Part shown: positions 3,769 to 21,119 of the stretch, one piece after another
How the letters are laid out: each line of letters begins with the position of its first letter
Numbering within the stretch: position 1 is the first letter of the stretch
Virus record (IMG/VR): IMGVR_UViG_3300046533_000211
Span: 1-33,219 of that record
Reading direction: 5' to 3' (one strand)
From: a virus
Taxonomy: Duplodnaviria; Heunggongvirae; Uroviricota; Caudoviricetes
DNA: 33,219 bases
The notes under the pieces: generated by a model
What the model saw: only the letters and a program-made list of their open reading frames with translations
What the model was told of the DNA's origin: nothing
Databases searched by the model: none
Made by a program: the position numbers and the translations under genes

Positions 3769-4653
3769 TCAGAACCGCTCGTTGGCCTGCTTCCAGGCGA
3801 ACTTGGCTTCCTCGGCAGCACGCTCCTGCTCAGCCTCGCGCTTGGCGAACTCGTTCTTCCACTCAGCCCAGTCGCGGTTGGCCAGCTCGGCCTCGGCCTG
3901 ATTGTCATCAGCGATGTCCAGGTCACGCACCTGGACATAGGCCTGGGCCACAGGAGCGGGAGCAGCGGCCTTGCCCGCCTTGATGGCAGCCAGTTGCTCG
4001 GCCACCTGGGGATCGAGCGCGGCAGCCTTGCGGGCCGCCTTGTACTCATCGCCACCCAGGATGGCAGGGCCACACTTGGTGCCCAGCCCGATCTTCTTCG
4101 AAATCGGATCCTCCAGGCCACGTGAGCACTGCGCACACACCTGGGTGCGGATGCCGAACTCGGCGATCTGCTCAGGGGTCATCCGCATCTCGGCGGTCAG
4201 CTTGAAGATCATGCCCTTGGCCCACTCCCAGCCATGGGCGGTGACCATCTTGGCCACGAAGCGGCCCGGATTGCGCTTGGACTCGACCACGCGGTACACG
4301 GAACCATCCGTGAAGCGGTAGATGCCCTCAGTGGAAACACTGGGGGCCTCAGCCCTGGCCTGGGCCTGGGCAGGAGCACCACCCTTGCGGTTGGCGAAGG
4401 GCTGCTTGAACAGCCACGTGATCCACTTGCTGGCCTGGTCACCGGTCATACCGGCAGCGGTCATCTCAGCGATCTTGGCAACAACATCCTCGGCGATGAT
4501 CTTCTGGAGGTCACCAGAGACACAACGCTCGATGGTGGCCATCTGCTTAAGGCTGGCAGGCCTGGCCTGGCGGGCAGGGCGATCCTGGCCACCGTTGTAG
4601 CGGTTGGTGCGGGGGTAAGAGGTGCGGTAGCGGTCGGTGCGCTCGTAGCTCAT
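3769..4653 (-). CDS. DUF6011 domain protein (294 aa)
   Basis: CAQCSRGLEDPISKKIGLGTKC fits the CxxC...LxDxxS...GxGxxC zinc motif; AAGGAG SD; preceded by the cassette. Confidence 0.75.
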   Translation of the reverse strand: MSYERTDRYRTSYPRTNRYNGGQDRPARQARPASLKQMATIERCVSGDLQKIIAEDVVAKIAEMTAAGMTGDQASKWITWLFKQPFANRKGGAPAQAQARAEAPSVSTEGIYRFTDGSVYRVVESKRNPGRFVAKMVTAHGWEWAKGMIFKLTAEMRMTPEQIAEFGIRTQVCAQCSRGLEDPISKKIGLGTKCGPAILGGDEYKAARKAAALDPQVAEQLAAIKAGKAAAPAPVAQAYVQVRDLDIADDNQAEAELANRDWAEWKNEFAKREAEQERAAEEAKFAWKQANERF

Positions 4654-5745: not shown

Positions 5746-6077
5746 TTCGGGCACCTCGTATGCGTGCGCGGTTTGCCGTTCATCAGGATCGTGAGCATCT
5801 TGCCGCAGCGTGGGCAGGGTGAGTGACCCCGGCGATGGGCGTGCTGCCAGGAACGCACATGGTCCACGTCGTAGCCGGTGGCCCCGCAGATCTTGCAACG
5901 GATCTTCCCGGTCCGCGACCCTGGCAGTGGCTCGAATACCTCCGATACCCAGTAGGCGTCACCACCGATCTCGACACAGGCCCACTGCTCGCCACAATCC
6001 AGGCAGGTCCACCGGTCGCCGTCCACGGCCTCACTCGGGGGTTCACACCAGCCCAGACCCAGCCTGCGGACGCTCAT
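5742..6077 (-). CDS. Multi-zinc-finger protein (111 aa)
   Basis: CLDC, CKIC, HxH and CPRC motifs; TGATG coupling. Confidence 0.65.
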   Translation of the reverse strand: MSVRRLGLGWCEPPSEAVDGDRWTCLDCGEQWACVEIGGDAYWVSEVFEPLPGSRTGKIRCKICGATGYDVDHVRSWQHAHRRGHSPCPRCGKMLTILMNGKPRTHTRCPK

Positions 6078-6376
6078 CAGCCACACCCCGGCAGGGCATC
6101 GCGCACAGCCTGCCCGGTCTGCCAGATGGACTGGCGTCCGTCGCCCTGGTGGAGCCGCTCAGCGATCTCCCCAGGTGACTCCCCGAGGGCGAGCTGGGTG
6201 CAGATGACCCCGTTGAGATCAGGCTGGTCGATGGAGCTGTCCACCCCACCGTTGCCGTACACGTCGGCGTGGGCCTGGCCCTGGCCCAGCGTGAAGCCGA
6301 GGGCGATCCCGCATGCCCAGATGACCATCAGCGTGAACCACAGCAGCCAGCCATGGACGGTGACTCGCTTCCTCAT
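6077..6376 (-). CDS. Secreted/membrane protein, DUF732-like (99 aa)
   Basis: N-terminal hydrophobic segment ending AHA-D; ICTQLALGESP...C pattern. Confidence 0.6.
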   Translation of the reverse strand: MRKRVTVHGWLLWFTLMVIWACGIALGFTLGQGQAHADVYGNGGVDSSIDQPDLNGVICTQLALGESPGEIAERLHQGDGRQSIWQTGQAVRDALPGCG

Positions 6377-6630
6377 GTGCCCTCCTTCGCGGCCCGTTTC
6401 ACAGCAGCCTGTTCCTCGAATATCTTCTGGCTCGGGCTGACAATCTCGCGCTGGGGCGCGGTGATGAAAGGCCGAGCGCTGATGCCGGGGTCGGCGTAGT
6501 AGGTGTGCTGGTGCTCCTCCAGCACCTCGACCCAACATGTCAGCCGTAGCAGGATCTGGAGCACCCGACTGGTGTCCGCGTTCGCCAACGCCTCGATGAT
6601 CTCCTCACGGATGGACTCGATCTCGCTCAC
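6373..6630 (-). CDS. Hypothetical protein (85 aa)
   Basis: GTGA and ATGA overlaps. Confidence 0.6.
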   Translation of the reverse strand: MSEIESIREEIIEALANADTSRVLQILLRLTCWVEVLEEHQHTYYADPGISARPFITAPQREIVSPSQKIFEEQAAVKRAAKEGT

Positions 6631-6995
6631 AGGTCCAGCACCCGATCTGCCGTCATGCGGACATTGACCGGCTTCGGGCCATCGAGGTCCAAGTAGGCCG
6701 TGCGGGCCGAGGCCAGCATCGCCAGCACTCCTGCATCGAGGGCCTTGGCCGGGATGGGCAGAGCGGCCAGGCGGCTCAGGATGTCCGTCAGGTGCTTGCA
6801 CTTGCGATGGTGAATCCAGCCTGGACATGAGCAGCACCACTGCCCATTGGCACGCCGCTGCGACACCAGGTAGAACGACGACGACGAGGTCGACTTCACG
6901 GTGAAGCGGTTGGTGTAGTCCCGGTTGTCGGGCTTAAGGCTGGAGCCGATCTGCTGAGCGATCAGCTCTACCTGTGCCCTGCTTTCGTGGGCCAT
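6627..6995 (-). CDS. SWIM zinc-finger protein (122 aa)
   Basis: YLVSQ...WCCSCPGWIHHRKCKH is CxC-xn-CxH; GAAGGAG SD; preceded by a hairpin. Confidence 0.8.
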   Translation of the reverse strand: MAHESRAQVELIAQQIGSSLKPDNRDYTNRFTVKSTSSSSFYLVSQRRANGQWCCSCPGWIHHRKCKHLTDILSRLAALPIPAKALDAGVLAMLASARTAYLDLDGPKPVNVRMTADRVLDL

Positions 6996-7018
6996 TCGTA
7001 CTCCTTCGGTTAGTGACC

Positions 7019-7029
7019 GGCCTGGTGCC
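7019..7029 (-). promoter_or_regulatory. Hairpin motif copy 2 (GGCACCAGGCC), no clear promoter
   Basis: Flanks GATC/GGTC extend the stem; SD follows. Confidence 0.75.
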
Positions 7030-7095
7030 GATCCTGGTCTGAATTGACCACCGGCACACAGGGACCGGGCGGGCGTCCCTGTGGCCGAGTTCCAC

Positions 7096-7437
7096 TCATC
7101 CCTTCGGATGCCACGTCCTGCCACCATCGTGGCTGTGGGTGCCTGCGGCGACCACCTTGCGGTCGACCTGCACTCCAGCGATCTGCTCAGCGCGCTGGAT
7201 GGCCATCCGGGTGGCGGCAGAACCCCTGATCCGCAGCGTCCGATAGATGCACGCATCCGTCATCCGCTTCCGGTCGTCATCGCTGATCCCGATGAAGGTG
7301 ATGGCACCCTGCGGGCCGACCTTCACCTGGACCTTGCGGGCCGCGATGAGCTTGTCCACAGCGGTCACCGCCTTCTTGACCTCCTCGACCCGCTGGGTCA
7401 GCGTCTGGTCGGGCATCCGCATCGTGTCGCATGGCAT
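7096..7437 (-). CDS. Conserved hypothetical protein of the AAA+ module (113 aa; MPCDT...HSHDGGRTWH)
   Basis: AGGAGG SD; MPC N-terminus, DAC and His-rich C-terminus suggest metal binding. Confidence 0.75.
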   Translation of the reverse strand: MPCDTMRMPDQTLTQRVEEVKKAVTAVDKLIAARKVQVKVGPQGAITFIGISDDDRKRMTDACIYRTLRIRGSAATRMAIQRAEQIAGVQVDRKVVAAGTHSHDGGRTWHPKG

Positions 7438-7439
7438 GA

Positions 7440-8420
7440 TCAGACCTCCTTCTCGTTCTCGATGTTCTGGATGGCTGCCTCAAGCTCGGCCACCACCACT
7501 GGGTTGTCGGCGTTCTTCTCGATGTCGGCCCTGATCTGTGCGATGGCCGCGCCGCTGTCGTCACCCATGCCGGGTGCCGTCTCTGTGATCTCATCCCAGC
7601 CTTCGGGCAGCGGCGCTGAGTCGTCCATCTCCAGCTCTGGCGTGGCAGGCCCGCCGTACTGGATGTTCTCGTACATCGACTCGGTCAAGTCCAGGCCCCG
7701 CACATCCACGTCAGGAGTGCCGATGGCGACCTCGTCCTCAATGTCCAGGAAGGACACGCGGGCCTTGTCGATCTGCTCGATGGCCACCTTGTCGATCTCG
7801 ATACCGACCTGCTCGCCTGCCTTCGCCATCTTGGTGGCAGAGGAGCGGGCCACCTTCACGGCTTCCTCCAGGCGCTCGCGCGCTGCGGGGGACAGCATCT
7901 CGCCGATCTGCTTGGCCTTGGCGGCAGCGTCACGGACCTGCTTGACATCCAGGTTCGCCAAGCCCTGTTGCATGTCCTCCATGAGGTCCCGCAGCTCGGC
8001 GCTGATGGCCCGAACAGCTTCCACGTCATCCTGGGCAATGCGCCCGAAGATCACGTTGACGGAGAGTCGCGTCAGCCGCGCCTGCTCGTTGAACCTCTGA
8101 GCCAGTGCACGGGCCTCAGCGATGGCAGCGATCAACTCGGGTGCCCGGTCCTCTGGGCAGAGCTGGCCGAACGCCGACTGGGCGCACACGGTCTTGATCA
8201 TCGAGCGGGCCTTGCTGCGGGTCTTGATGGCAGCCTCATGCTCCTCGGGGTCAATGATGATCCGGGTCGTCTCCCAGCGGGCCACTTCCTCGCCTGCCTC
8301 ATTGATGTGGGTGCCCTCGATCTCACGGGTCCCGTAGCTGATGTTCCCCTTCACGCTGGTGGTTACTGCCACCAGAAGGCCCGGACGGAGCGTCTGGATG
8401 GGGGTGGTGATGGTTGACAT
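7440..8420 (-). CDS. Alpha/beta plus coiled-coil protein of the AAA+ module (326 aa)
   Basis: Long open frame; GAGAGGA SD; has its own cassette; acidic tail. Confidence 0.8.
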   Translation of the reverse strand: MSTITTPIQTLRPGLLVAVTTSVKGNISYGTREIEGTHINEAGEEVARWETTRIIIDPEEHEAAIKTRSKARSMIKTVCAQSAFGQLCPEDRAPELIAAIAEARALAQRFNEQARLTRLSVNVIFGRIAQDDVEAVRAISAELRDLMEDMQQGLANLDVKQVRDAAAKAKQIGEMLSPAARERLEEAVKVARSSATKMAKAGEQVGIEIDKVAIEQIDKARVSFLDIEDEVAIGTPDVDVRGLDLTESMYENIQYGGPATPELEMDDSAPLPEGWDEITETAPGMGDDSGAAIAQIRADIEKNADNPVVVAELEAAIQNIENEKEV

Positions 8421-8449
8421 GATCTGGTGCTTTCCTCTCGGTTGTGACC

Positions 8450-8517
8450 GGCCTGGTGCCAGTCCTGTTGTCGAATATAGCCTACCGGGGTAGCAATTGA
8501 CAAGCTACCCCGGTAGG
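8450..8517 (-). promoter_or_regulatory. Cassette 3: TTGTCA-ATTGCTA-N11-TATATT plus hairpin, inside a 14-bp inverted repeat
   Basis: Box 8491-8498, -10 8474-8479, core 8450-8460; IR arms 8481-8494 and 8504-8517. Confidence 0.85.
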
Positions 8518-8525
8518 CCGGGTTC

Positions 8526-10118
8526 CTACAGATCCAGCTTGCGGGCTGGGCTGTCGGCCTCGACTGCCTTGGCGGCAGCCTGGGGGCTGGTGGCAGGACG
8601 GGCACGGCCTGCCCACTCCTTGCGGAGCCGGTCGATCTTCTCGGCAGCTGTCTTGGCCAGCGGCACGATGGTCTTGGCTATCCGCAGGATGTCATCCGTG
8701 GTGACCTCGCGGGCATCATCCGCAAAGGAGGTGAACATCGCCTCGGGCACCAGGGCAGCCAGCTCGGCACCCGTGAAGGTATCGGTTGCGTCTGCAATGG
8801 CAGGCAGGTCGATGCCGATGGTGTCGGCGTCCCGCCCGTTGGCCTTCAGTGCTGCAGCCATGACGGCCTCGCGCTCGTCGTGAGTGGGCACGTCGACCCA
8901 CCAGATCTCGTCGAACCTCCCCTTCCTCATCAGCTCCGGGGGCAGCTTGCTGGCGTCGTTCGCCGTGGCAATCACGAACGCGGAACCTTGGCGGTCCTGC
9001 ATCCAGGACAGGATGGCACCCAGTGCGTCGGCAGACACACCACCATCGCCCTGTTCACCCGTGGAACCGGCGAGCGCCTTCTCGATCTCATCCAGCCAGA
9101 CCACGCAGCGACCAATCGCCTCGATCACGCTGAGCGCCTTGCGGAGGTTGCCCTCGCTCTCGCCCACGTACTTGGACTTGAGCGCACCCAGGTCCAGCCG
9201 GATCAGCGGGACGTTCCACTCAGCCGCAAGGGCCTTGGCGCTGTAGGACTTGCCACAGCCTGGGACACCGATGACCATCGTGCCCTTGGGAGCCTGCAGG
9301 CCATAGGCCCGAGCAGCGGGGCTGAAGGCCAGCGACCGGCTGACGAGCCAGGCCTTGTAATCGGGCATGCCGCCCACGATGGACAGGCCACCGGCTGGCG
9401 GGTCGATCCACTCCAGGACACCCTCGCGGGCGATCACACGCTTCTTCTCGCTGGCGATGGTGGCCGGGTCGATCTTGCGGAGCTGGACCAGTGAGCGCGC
9501 GAAGCAGGCTTGCGCTTCCTCACCACTCAGGCCCACGGCTGCGTCGATGGCAGCATCCCGCTGGCCGTTGACTGCCGTCCTCTGCAGCTCCTCGGGCAGG
9601 GATGACACGGTGGCGTCCAGCAGGGCCGCGATCTCCTCACGGTCAGGCAGCGGCCACTCGATCACGGTTGCGTGACCAGCCAGCTCAGCGGGAATGTCGC
9701 CACTGGGGCTGATCACGATCACAGCCTGGGCGTTCTCACGGGCCTGGCCAGGAAGCCAGCGGGCCAGGTTGCGCAGGCGACGCAGTGTCATGGCGCTTGT
9801 CGGACCACTCAGCCACACTGGCAGGTCGCGCATGATCCACACGCCACGCTCACCACTGGTGTCCTTGATGATGTCCAGCGCGCCATCGGGATCGCCCACA
9901 CCCTGGTCTGTGGTCCTGCCGCTGATGCTGGCCACACCTTGGGCAATGTCCCAGGTCCTGGCCAGGTAGCCCGCTGAGGCAGCAGCCTCGAACAGGTACT
10001 TCTCGACCCGCGCTTCCTCGCGACTTACCACCCAGAGGAGTGGGTTGCGGGCACGCAGGAGGGCAGCCACATCAGCGGCAACGGTCTGCGAACGGGTTAC
10101 ATCTGCTTTCACGCTCAT
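8526..10118 (-). CDS. AAA+ ATPase, Ycf46-like (degenerate N-terminal AAA plus active C-terminal AAA; 530 aa)
   Basis: Walker A GVPGCGKS, pore loop KYVGESE, Walker B VVWLDEIEK, SRH ATANDASKLPPELMRKGRFDE. Confidence 0.92.
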   Translation of the reverse strand: MSVKADVTRSQTVAADVAALLRARNPLLWVVSREEARVEKYLFEAAASAGYLARTWDIAQGVASISGRTTDQGVGDPDGALDIIKDTSGERGVWIMRDLPVWLSGPTSAMTLRRLRNLARWLPGQARENAQAVIVISPSGDIPAELAGHATVIEWPLPDREEIAALLDATVSSLPEELQRTAVNGQRDAAIDAAVGLSGEEAQACFARSLVQLRKIDPATIASEKKRVIAREGVLEWIDPPAGGLSIVGGMPDYKAWLVSRSLAFSPAARAYGLQAPKGTMVIGVPGCGKSYSAKALAAEWNVPLIRLDLGALKSKYVGESEGNLRKALSVIEAIGRCVVWLDEIEKALAGSTGEQGDGGVSADALGAILSWMQDRQGSAFVIATANDASKLPPELMRKGRFDEIWWVDVPTHDEREAVMAAALKANGRDADTIGIDLPAIADATDTFTGAELAALVPEAMFTSFADDAREVTTDDILRIAKTIVPLAKTAAEKIDRLRKEWAGRARPATSPQAAAKAVEADSPARKLDL

Positions 10119-15307: not shown

Positions 15308-15468
15308 CAGTCCACCTCCAGCTGATCAGGGCTGTAGTAGCTCGGGCGGTCCCGGCAGTCCCACAGGACTCCGATGGTGATGGTGCCCTTCGCAAGCACC
15401 TTCACCACGGACCCCTCGCTGGTGCGACCACACAGCCGCACCCGGTCGCCAAACTCTGGTGACCTCAT
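15304..15468 (-). CDS. Small SH3/KOW-like protein (54 aa)
   Basis: Manually translated: FGDRVRL...EGSVVKV...VLWD...YYSPDQLE; ATGA overlap with Ku. Confidence 0.55.
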   Translation of the reverse strand: MRSPEFGDRVRLCGRTSEGSVVKVLAKGTITIGVLWDCRDRPSYYSPDQLEVDW

Positions 15469-16277
15469 GCCGCCTTGCCCTTCACGCTGGCTTCGAGCTT
15501 GGCCAGCAGGTCTGACACGTCAGACGGGGCCACGTCATCGGCCTCGGTGATGTCCAGCTCCACACCTTCAGCCTTGGCCTCGATGAGGCTGGTGAGCCGG
15601 TTCGTGTAGGTGTCCACGTGGGCGTCCTTGTCGAACTTGCCCACCATGCTGGCCACCAGCTTCTCGGCCATGTCCAGTTCGGCGGCACTGTACTCAGCAC
15701 CCAGGCCGGGGACAGTGGCCTCACGGACCTCATCGGCCCAGCGCAGGGTGTGCAGGACCAGAACGCCCTCCACGACCCGGATGGCAGCGATGTGGGTCTT
15801 GGCCCTCATGGTGAACTCGGCAATCGCCACCAGCCCGCTGGACGCCATTGCGTTGGCAAGCAGGGCATACGCCTTGGAGGGCCGCACGGTTTTCTCGCTG
15901 CCGACCTTCCCACCACCCAGGTAGTAGCTGTCCTCGAACATGATGGGGTCGATCTCGGACTGGTCCACGAACTGCAGGATCTCGATCTGCTTCCCACGCT
16001 CGCCCTCCAGCTGGGCCAGATCATCCTCGGTGATGGTGACCAGGCTGCCGCCCACCTCAATGCCCTTGACGATGTCGCCGTAGGCCACATCCTCGCCGCA
16101 TTCCTTGCAGACGCGCTTGAGTGAGATGCCGCCCATGCAGGTCGGGCCGAGTGACCCTGGCCGAGCATGGTGCTGGTGGAAGCTGACATCGTGGTTATCG
16201 GTCGCCTTATAGAGGGCGACTGGGAACTGGACCAGCCCGAAGCCGAGCTGCCCCGTCCAGGTGCTGCGCATTGCCAT
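15465..16277 (-). CDS. ku: Ku DNA end-binding protein (NHEJ / Mu Gam-like)
   Basis: RSTWTGQLGFGLVQFPVALYKAT, CKECGEDVAYGDIVKG, EIDPIMFEDSYYL, LVLHTLRWADEVR. Confidence 0.95.
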   Translation of the reverse strand: MAMRSTWTGQLGFGLVQFPVALYKATDNHDVSFHQHHARPGSLGPTCMGGISLKRVCKECGEDVAYGDIVKGIEVGGSLVTITEDDLAQLEGERGKQIEILQFVDQSEIDPIMFEDSYYLGGGKVGSEKTVRPSKAYALLANAMASSGLVAIAEFTMRAKTHIAAIRVVEGVLVLHTLRWADEVREATVPGLGAEYSAAELDMAEKLVASMVGKFDKDAHVDTYTNRLTSLIEAKAEGVELDITEADDVAPSDVSDLLAKLEASVKGKAA

Positions 16278-20016: not shown

Positions 20017-20189
20017 CACACGGCTCCCTTCGGGGCGGGTCGCAGGTTGAAGATGTTGAACTCGGGCTTGGTGGCTAGCTCGACGTGGTCGGCACAGACC
20101 GCATAGCCTCGGATCACGGTGAGGTGCGGCACCCGCTTGCCGGTCAGGATGAAGCAGACGCAGCACGCGCAGAAGTTCTGGCGGCTCAT
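20016..20189 (-). CDS. Cys-rich protein (57 aa)
   Basis: CACCVC...CADH; GAGGAGG SD. Confidence 0.55.
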   Translation of the reverse strand: MSRQNFCACCVCFILTGKRVPHLTVIRGYAVCADHVELATKPEFNIFNLRPAPKGAV

Positions 20190-20890
20190 GGCCCCTCCTC
20201 GTCCAGGTCCAGCACCCGAGGGTCGGCGTAGACCTTGGGCTTGCGCTCCCACACGGTGATGTCATCGTGCAGGCCCCACCACTGGATCGGGGTGTGCGAC
20301 GCGACCTCGGTCCATTCCTCAGTCAGCAGCTCATGGAAGTCCTTGTCGCCCGTGCAGCCGCCCTCGCCCTCACCGATGTAGATCACCCGGTCGCCCTTGA
20401 ACTCACGCAGGGTGCGCCACGCTGACGGCTCGGAGTACGGGGGCCAGGACAGGAACAGCACCCGGTCGGGGTACTTGTCCACGGTCACCTCTGCGTAGCC
20501 CTGGTTGACCGGCACCCAGAGCGCGCAGTCCTTGTGCCAGACGTTGGCCCCTGGTGCAGCGTCATAGCTCGCCACATCGACGCCCAGCTGCTTCAGCACG
20601 TAGCCCCAGTAACCACTGCCCGCCATCGGATCCAGCAGTGACATCCGCGAGTAGGCCGCGACGAACTGCACCGAGCCAGGGTCCGTGACCGACCAGGCAT
20701 AGCGGCACACGTATTCGTGCCGGTCGAGGTAGTCCTCCTTGAACCCCGACTCGGTCAGGTTCGGTCCGAGCCGGTACCGCGCGATGCACGGCCCCTCCCA
20801 GGGGAACTCGCCCCGACTCACCTTCGTCCGCACATCGTCCCAGTACGGGTTATGGATGGGGATGGGAAACGAACGCAGCAGCTCAGTCAC
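20186..20890 (-). CDS. Class I SAM-dependent methyltransferase-like protein (234 aa)
   Basis: Motif I LLDPMAGSGYW, acidic VASYD, motif IV-like LFLSWPPY, IYIGEGEGGCTGD. Confidence 0.8.
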   Translation of the reverse strand: MTELLRSFPIPIHNPYWDDVRTKVSRGEFPWEGPCIARYRLGPNLTESGFKEDYLDRHEYVCRYAWSVTDPGSVQFVAAYSRMSLLDPMAGSGYWGYVLKQLGVDVASYDAAPGANVWHKDCALWVPVNQGYAEVTVDKYPDRVLFLSWPPYSEPSAWRTLREFKGDRVIYIGEGEGGCTGDKDFHELLTEEWTEVASHTPIQWWGLHDDITVWERKPKVYADPRVLDLDEEGP

Positions 20891-21119
20891 CGCGCTCCTT
20901 CTCTGCAGCAAGCACGGCCCCGATGAGGGCATCGCCCTGCTGGACAACGAGCATCAACTCACGCTCCATGTGACGGAACCGGGTGCCTGGCATGGCCAGG
21001 TTGAGCCGGTCAGCATGACGGGCCAGCACCCCGAAGTCGGCGGCGAGGTCCTCCAGGGTGGCCCTGATCCCCGCCAGGTTCTCGCGTGCGCTCTCGCCAG
21101 TCTCAGTGCAGGCACTCAT
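20883..21119 (-). CDS. Hypothetical protein (78 aa)
   Basis: ATGA coupling. Confidence 0.6.
   Translation of the reverse strand: MSACTETGESARENLAGIRATLEDLAADFGVLARHADRLNLAMPGTRFRHMERELMLVVQQGDALIGAVLAAEKERGD

Follow-up and report, generated by a model that had tools for sequence, protein, structure and literature searches.

We found a three-gene module, a Ycf46-type AAA+ ATPase with two new partner proteins and a portable tail motif, in the 33,219-nucleotide stretch of viral DNA analyzed here (hereafter the window: positions 1 to 33,219 of the IMG/VR record IMGVR_UViG_3300046533_000211, the leftward arm of this 97-kb uncultured virus record). The ATPase (AAA, 530 amino acids, aa) is followed by proteins of 326 and 113 aa, termed P326 and P113. 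The same short motif ends the ATPase and recurs in the tail of P326, and in this phage it is also found on a third protein that carries a SWIM motif. Our preferred explanation is that the ATPase is an unfoldase whose clients are tethered to it by these shared tails, perhaps via P113, a model that we hold tentatively as a whole, with a probability of about 0.42.

The sequence-only reading had grouped these genes into one module, and the co-occurrence of AAA, P326 and P113 elsewhere bears this out. A search seeded with P113 alone gave 88 loci, 8 from bacterial genomes and 80 from IMG/VR, at which the other genes were sought by profiles. AAA, P326 and P113 follow each other in this order on one strand at 75 of the 88 loci, in many phyla; all three genes are present at 78 loci (three of them in another order), and four more loci end at a contig edge. 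The hosts span at least six bacterial phyla, and those in genome records include Rhizobiales, Bradyrhizobium, Elusimicrobia, Acidobacteriaceae, Planctomycetota, Gemmataceae and Mycobacterium. Clustering of 763 flanking open reading frames (ORFs) revealed no further conserved neighbour, with the largest cluster represented at 6 of 65 distinct loci. AAA, P326 and P113 are a self-contained module that transfers between unrelated phages as a unit. A ParB-like nuclease was considered as a fourth member and rejected, being found at 6 of the 65 loci.

Incomplete versions of the module also exist. At three loci (L028-30) AAA is followed directly by P113, without P326. In a 64.5-kb IMG/VR record that is 61% complete (L066), the ORF directly before P113 (locus at 7549-8342) encodes a 127-aa protein that consists of a P326-type tail only, with two RxLDL copies, and an AAA of the ATPase family was not found anywhere in the 64.5 kb. 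A separate observation concerns two near-identical metagenome contigs: the AAA gene is intact in one (L005:4639-5973) and broken over several frames in the other (L006:4267-5973), where P326 and P113 are intact despite the broken AAA. Either the ATPase is decaying in the second contig or the assembly is at fault there.

The tail motif, Rx[LIVM]D[LIVMF], lies within the final nine residues of nearly all of 116 full-length AAA relatives; almost every member of the family has a variable linker and then Rx[LI]D[LI]-COOH at its end. The strict pattern is present in 57 of 73 distinct locus copies, and the remainder mostly show a hydrophobic-D/E-hydrophobic variant. In the tail module of P326 (Table 1), R221, F224, L225 and D226 are invariant and P236, R241 and D244 nearly so. 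Throughout the P326 relatives an invariant [AS]FLD[LF] closes the folded part, RxLD[LF] follows about 12 residues on, and after a stretch rich in Pro, Ala and Glu the protein usually ends in a hydrophobic-D/E-hydrophobic C-terminus. Sliding-clamp-binding motifs have the form QL[SD]LF; this reading of the tails was rejected by inspection, as the leading Q and the final aromatic residue are missing.

Judged by profile similarity, the SWIM-motif protein ends, over its last 40 residues, in a copy of the tail found in the P326 family. They match positions 203-242 of the P326-family profile (Table 1), and a phmmer search of the SWIM protein against 19,348 ORFs returned P326 tails only (E 2.5e-4 to 2e-3). 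This tail reads ARTAYLDLD, a 12-aa spacer and RVLDL-COOH, with the same spacing as in the P326 module, and it is the sole tie between the SWIM protein and the other three. The sequence-only reading had counted the SWIM protein as part of the module. This does not hold, since the gene is absent beside the triad at other loci, and a search of 50,697 phage records gave one partial match to it. Among the 763 ORFs neighbouring the triad, 3 end in the motif versus 0.94 expected, and the SWIM gene of the window is one of the 3. Its ORF was listed as 209 aa, but the ATG at 6995, which gives 122 aa and lies downstream of a GGAG and of one hairpin element (described below), is most likely the real start. 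The SWIM signature itself is present, with a Pfam score of 14.4 bits versus a cut-off of 19.6.

The ATPase has an intact motor of the classic AAA+ clade. The Walker A and B motifs, pore loop and arginine finger that the sequence-only reading had picked out are all present, and invariant in 66 relatives: Walker A is GVPGCGKS at residue 284, Walker B VVWLDE at 339, the pore loop KYVG at 316 (KFVG in the family consensus) and the arginine-finger segment RKGRFD at 398, in which R398, G400, R401, F402 and D403 do not vary. These motifs, together with the Pfam matches to AAA (Table 1) and AAA_lid_3 (E 2e-6), place the protein in the classic clade and not with MoxR, and the three neighbours have no vWA match in Pfam, in line with the earlier remark that no vWA partner is visible. 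The protein is laid out as an N-domain (residues 1-265), the active AAA domain with its lid (270-480), a variable linker and the C-terminal RKLDL. Residues 1-265 are better conserved than the motor and match no Pfam family. A profile of this N-domain aligns with the protein's own C-domain from sensor-1 to the lid (hhalign E 0.017), and we tentatively regard it as a degenerate, nucleotide-free AAA-like module. The best solved relatives of the ATPase are the D2 rings of Cdc48/p97 (E ~1e-45), which share its aromatic pore loop, and by analogy with the classic clade it would form a hexamer that threads and unfolds proteins. Cofactors of p97 dock via short motifs on its N-domain and on its extreme C-terminal tail, a manner of docking that resembles the tail logic proposed here. 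The two systems nonetheless differ: the phage ATPase has one active ring and not two, its N-domain is unrelated to that of p97, the phage module has no ubiquitin system and the sequence of the tail motif is different.

The label "Ycf46-like" that the ATPase had been given gains support at the level of domain architecture, as its N-domain matches that of bacterial AAA proteins flanked by DUF2997 and DUF1257. DUF2997 genes were sought in 401 proteobacterial genomes, with two hits (L103 and L104). The L103 DUF2997 gene has a DUF1257 (Ycf35) gene on one side and an AAA gene on the other, and both halves of this AAA match the window ATPase, the N-part against residues 16-240 (29% identity over 231 aa, E 5e-25; phmmer E 1.7e-23) and the AAA domain with an E of 9e-67. 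Three successive genes of a Gemmataceae genome encode a DUF1257-like protein, a DUF2997-like protein and an AAA, the two likenesses being judged by eye. The source label "SpoVK/Ycf46/Vps4 family" was attached to one ATPase relative only. In cyanobacteria ycf46 is reported to belong to a three-gene, stress-induced operon and its ATPase to interact with KaiC (PMC13683863); DUF2997 and DUF1257 (ycf35) are described as a conserved pair (PMC4284462).

The bacterial and the phage modules are alike in being compact three-gene units of one AAA and two small proteins, but the bacterial partners are unrelated to P326 and P113. P113 as a relative of DUF2997 and P326 as a relative of DUF1257 were both rejected at the reach of our tools, with no Pfam match among 52 and 66 members, respectively, and a negative hhalign comparison; the DUF2997 profile (PF11211) has no match anywhere in the 97-kb phage record. 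Moreover, the two bacterial AAA proteins that we read (in L103 and the Gemmataceae genome) lack the Rx[LI]D[LI]-COOH tail, which suggests that the motif goes with the phage partners. Some features of the two proteobacterial loci are reported for completeness. The AAA gene of L103 is divided over two frames, with the break at ~7540. In both loci (L103:4686-8949 and L104:549-1291) the DUF2997 gene lies near a small NrdG-like radical-SAM activase (Fer4_12), identified by Pfam in L104 and by eye in L103, and in L104 the DUF2997 gene stands alone, without AAA and DUF1257.

P326 had been described as a coiled-coil protein. The AlphaFold2 model (predicted local distance difference test, pLDDT, of 82) shows instead an alpha/beta domain of three long strands plus helices (residues 10-127) and a four-helix bundle (133-225), after which come a disordered acidic segment and, at the end, two helices. 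Residues 1-245 are conserved and the final ~80 aa are lineage-specific. Clustered at 90% identity, the relatives make up more than 428 groups, and at 50% identity they make up 1018; of the exhaustive profile search the best 150 matches listed were inspected. No match to P326 was found in Pfam or NCBIfam or in a profile search of solved structures. Foldseek on the PDB gave a best row with an E of 0.027, and the VIA-align listing was filled with generic four-helix bundles, which cover residues 128-232 and hardly probe the N-terminal alpha/beta domain.

One family deserves mention, as P326 may, from its predicted structure, be a distant relative of DUF3150. The model of P326 resembles several ~290-aa phage proteins over the full length of these proteins (Foldseek probability 1.0, E ~1e-3), including a named DUF3150 phage protein in BFVD (probability 1.0, E 1.6e-3, template modelling score, TM, of 0.34), and PF11348 matches 1 of 66 P326 relatives (E 8e-4). 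The TM-scores are low, however (0.33-0.37), the PF11348 profile does not match the window P326 at E up to 0.1, and an hhalign profile comparison of P326 with one DUF3150 sequence was negative. CobT-type proteins are partners of an AAA+ ATPase, and the DUF3150 gene that we read adjoins a CobT-like vWA partner, whereas the phage module has none. That gene lies in a proteobacterial genome (L100:7903-16981), where genes for a CobT-like vWA protein of 731 aa, a primase and a relaxase-type protein (TraI_2) come after it, neighbours which indicate that DUF3150 belongs there to an integrative or conjugative element.

P113 is a confidently modelled protein (AlphaFold2, pLDDT 92.5) without a match to a solved or Atlas fold. 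The best Foldseek row on the PDB has an E of 0.43, VIA-align over 48,161 chains gave a best Z of 3.9, and the Atlas returned an unnamed cluster by shape (best TM 0.51) and none by features. Nor was there a match to a Pfam family, to NCBIfam or to the profiles of solved structures; weak BNR/Asp-box matches were seen in 38 of 52 members. The protein is basic, with an isoelectric point (pI) of 10.1, and nearly fixed in length, almost all of the 1106 clusters at 90% identity having 107-114 aa. With more than 1100 P113 clusters at this level, and ~1000 P326 clusters at 50% identity, the module is common. Both the MPCD start and the HSHDGG end, singled out in the sequence-only reading, are conserved across the family; the conserved start indicates that P113 begins at 7437 and not at the internal Met of some database records. 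C3, C63, H101 and H103 are conserved, as is the Asp-box-like C-terminal HSHDGGxTW, and the pattern of these four residues hints at a possible zinc site.

The nearest cultured phages of this virus are the cluster O mycobacteriophages. Gp96, gp95 and gp93 of phage Corndog are direct homologues of AAA, P326 and P113 (53%, 49% and 56% identity), in the same gene order and the same arm, and gp96 also ends in RVLDL. Corndog differs in that the 86-aa gp94 separates gp95 from gp93, a SWIM homologue is absent, and gp95 lacks the ~80-aa C-terminal extension of the window P326. Mass spectrometry detected peptides of Corndog gp95 and gp96, of the Catdawg counterparts numbered gp95 and gp97, and of Catdawg gp93 (PMC4351075), which is likely the P113 counterpart from its position beside gp95. 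Annotation in cluster O covers the ATPase only, and no function of, or link among, the three genes was reported (PMC4351075). These phages, which share the genes and can be grown on M. smegmatis, offer a tractable model. The window also encodes a Ku-like DNA end-binding protein at 15465-16277 on the minus strand (Pfam Ku E 3e-45), as do cluster O mycobacteriophages, which supports the kinship of the uncultured phage to this cluster.

We propose that the phage expresses this horizontally mobile three-gene module from its own promoters in the early, leftward arm. The motor would be a Ycf46-type, classic-clade AAA+ with a nucleotide-free N-domain, one active ring and an aromatic pore loop. Its hexamer would display six Rx[LI]D[LI]-COOH tails, and the acidic-hydrophobic tail motif would mediate assembly. 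P326 would be multivalent, carrying two or three copies of the motif (FLDL, RxLDL and the hydrophobic-D/E-hydrophobic C-terminus) on a disordered acidic tail, and the SWIM protein of this phage would have picked up the same tail. One receptor would read the tails, so that their bearers, always P326 and in this phage SWIM too, become adaptors or clients tethered to the ATPase. P113 is our first candidate for the receptor and the N-domain of AAA our second. We favour P113 since it is the most conserved member of the module; since it is basic and the tails are acidic (pI 4.05 for that of P326); since it always lies beside at least one tail-bearer, namely AAA in L028-30 and the tail-only ORF in L066; and since the motif is missing from the bacterial relatives that have no P113.

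Several points weigh against this model. The motif is short, and 16 of the 73 AAA copies depart from the strict pattern. At two near-identical loci (L013 and L063) the 6 kb upstream of P113 contain neither AAA nor P326. The AAA-like nature of the N-domain hangs on a weak profile match, the E of 0.017 given above. P113 was nominated as the receptor on the grounds of co-occurrence and charge, and the reader of the tail could instead be the N-domain of AAA or some host protein that is conserved across phyla. Binding between any two of the module proteins is presumed, and the sequences point to no particular substrate, effector enzyme or host target. A host complex, anti-defence and a P326 polymer, the targets put forward in the sequence-only reading, are conjectural. 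Prediction of a complex of AAA, P326 (residues 1-250) and P113 from separate alignments gave 0.00 in two runs, which is no verdict either way.

The more specific version of the tethering model, a motif-based recruitment system in which P113 has a new fold, reads hydrophobic-acidic-hydrophobic C-terminal tails and couples their bearers to a Ycf46-type unfoldase, is in our judgement rather unlikely. Were it true, phages could re-aim the machine by moving a 40-aa tail onto new proteins, as in the SWIM protein and the tail-only ORF of L066, and there would be a clue to what the small partners do for the uncharacterised Ycf46 machines in cyanobacteria and plastids. A tail reader would also explain how a phage unfoldase chooses its clients, provide a rule for finding clients in any phage genome and add a new fold to the peptide-recognition domains. 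The module in any case connects a poorly understood AAA+ family, whose role in cyanobacteria and plastids is debated, with a portable tail motif and with a small, conserved candidate reader.

A role in DNA metabolism is improbable but has some evidence in its favour. Here P326 would act in the manner of SSB or of a recombination mediator, with AAA and P113 loading, unloading or recycling it at replication or repair intermediates; its folded body would bind nucleic acid. The order of body, disordered linker and acidic tip with hydrophobic end residues in P326 is that of SSB with its C-terminal tail, and both P113 and the N-part of the SWIM protein are basic; the N-domain of P326, however, is near neutral (pI 7.8) and the entire protein very acidic. 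The Atlas model of the P326 N-part is nearest to PUR and PC4-type folds (TM 0.35-0.40), but that model is poor (pLDDT 0.47), and neither an OB (oligonucleotide/oligosaccharide-binding) fold nor a significant match to a DNA-binding family was found. Ku is encoded in the window and in cluster O phages, and at some loci the triad lies beside genes for RusA, RuvC, primase or a ParB-like nuclease, yet such DNA-enzyme neighbours are not conserved, as the ParB-like count given above illustrates. Finally, classic-clade AAA+ enzymes with an aromatic pore loop work on proteins, not on DNA.

Equally improbable is a part in conflict, whether as a phage-borne defence or superinfection exclusion system (IetAS-like) or as a means of countering defence by unfolding an immune complex of the host. 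As is typical of conflict genes, the module travels in one piece from phage to unrelated phage and lies amid small accessory genes, and its AAA domain matches models of IetA (PADLOC E 4e-20; NCBIfam IteA E 2e-18). These matches nonetheless cover the generic AAA domain only (residues 271-494), that to NCBIfam IteA reaching 66.5 bits versus a cut-off of 510, and P326, P113 and the SWIM protein match no defence model except ZorA at chance level. No protease, nuclease or other effector partner is present, and P326, P113 and the SWIM protein contain no peptidase domain. Cluster O phages carry the module, yet no lysogens were recoverable from them (PMC4351075), which argues against prophage defence there, and the anti-defence version is a conjecture.

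Least probable of all is a self-directed system, akin to the polymer dynamics suggested in the sequence-only reading, in which P326 forms a polymer or lattice that AAA disassembles via the C-terminal tails, as Vps4 does through the MIM motifs of ESCRT-III, with P113 as a regulator: the helical bundle, disordered acidic linker and terminal short motifs of P326 follow the tail logic of ESCRT-III, the ATPase is in the same broad clade as Vps4 and CdvC (CdvC E 8e-17), and Corndog gp95 peptides were detected even in CsCl-purified virion preparations, suggesting abundance (PMC4351075), but there is no Pfam match to MIT or Snf7, the N-domain of the ATPase looks AAA-like, the searches with P326 gave no sequence or fold match to ESCRT-III, PspA or Vipp1 (those by fold listing generic helical bundles), AAA bears the same tail motif whereas Vps4 does not, and the L028-30 phages are without P326.

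The coordinates of the module and its associated elements are listed in Table 1. As had been claimed, the AAA, P326, P113 and SWIM ORFs are consecutive and co-oriented on the minus strand, which carries nearly all genes from 3.7 to 32.5 kb, and P113 starts 2 nt past the P326 stop. The GC content at third codon positions, 0.79-0.85, marks the three large ORFs as coding. The PHROG families of P326 and P113 are of unknown function, and annotation in the module is limited to the ATPase. The GC content of the window is ~65%, the host of the phage is Mycobacterium-like, and a nucleotide search of phage records with this DNA gave no match, though the closest record may be absent from that set.

Table 1 Positions of the module genes, tail motifs and upstream elements in the window.
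Feature	Positions	Strand	Basis
AAA+ ATPase, 530 aa	8526..10118	-	Pfam AAA E 4e-28; phrog_8638 E 5e-179
AAA C-terminal motif R-K-L-D-L-COOH	8529..8543	-	family-wide Rx[LIVM]D[LIVMF]
P326, 326 aa	7440..8420	-	phrog_11021 E 5e-65
P326 tail module, residues 216-245 (last bundle helix, SFLDI, 12-aa spacer, RGLDL)	7686..7775	-	conservation
P113, 113 aa	7096..7437	-	phrog_11784 E 2e-40
SWIM-motif protein, 122 aa	6627..6995	-	CSC-x9-CKH signature; Pfam SWIM E 0.029
P326-type tail in SWIM, residues 83-122	6630..6749	-	P326-family profile E 1.2e-6
Promoter-plus-hairpin cassette upstream of AAA	10134..10196	-	repeat families D1/D2
Promoter-plus-hairpin cassette upstream of P326	8426..8504	-	repeat families D1-D5; promoter scan 10/12
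Hairpin element GGCACCAGGCC with GGAG upstream of SWIM, without promoter half	6995..7036	-	repeat families D3, D5, D17, D19

Three of the four genes had been credited with a hairpin or cassette of their own, and this was confirmed, with full copies before AAA and P326 and the hairpin half only before SWIM. The AAA cassette consists of TTGCAA, a spacer, the GGCACCAGGCC element and a GGAG ribosome site. That of P326 reads TTGTCA, 18 nt and TATATT, with a flanking inverted repeat, and then GGCACCAGGCC. The inverted repeat is of 13 nt (CTACCGGGGTAGC / GCTACCCCGGTAG), flanks the -35 box of the P326 promoter and resembles an operator of the kind that dimeric regulators bind.

Two other proteins of the window, both encoded on the minus strand, contain tail-like sequences. 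A phrog_19090 protein (20186-20947) has RVLDL at residue 244 of 253, and a phrog_636 protein (3769-4653) has the less clear RDLDI at 243 of 294. Both proteins may be additional clients of the proposed tail reader, or the matches may have arisen by chance. Downstream of the SWIM gene, an 85-aa ORF on the minus strand (6373-6631) has a GTG start that overlaps the SWIM stop codon (GTGA), and translation of the two genes looks coupled. Beyond this ORF comes a small protein that looks secreted, with its real start near 6376 and its end at 6077.

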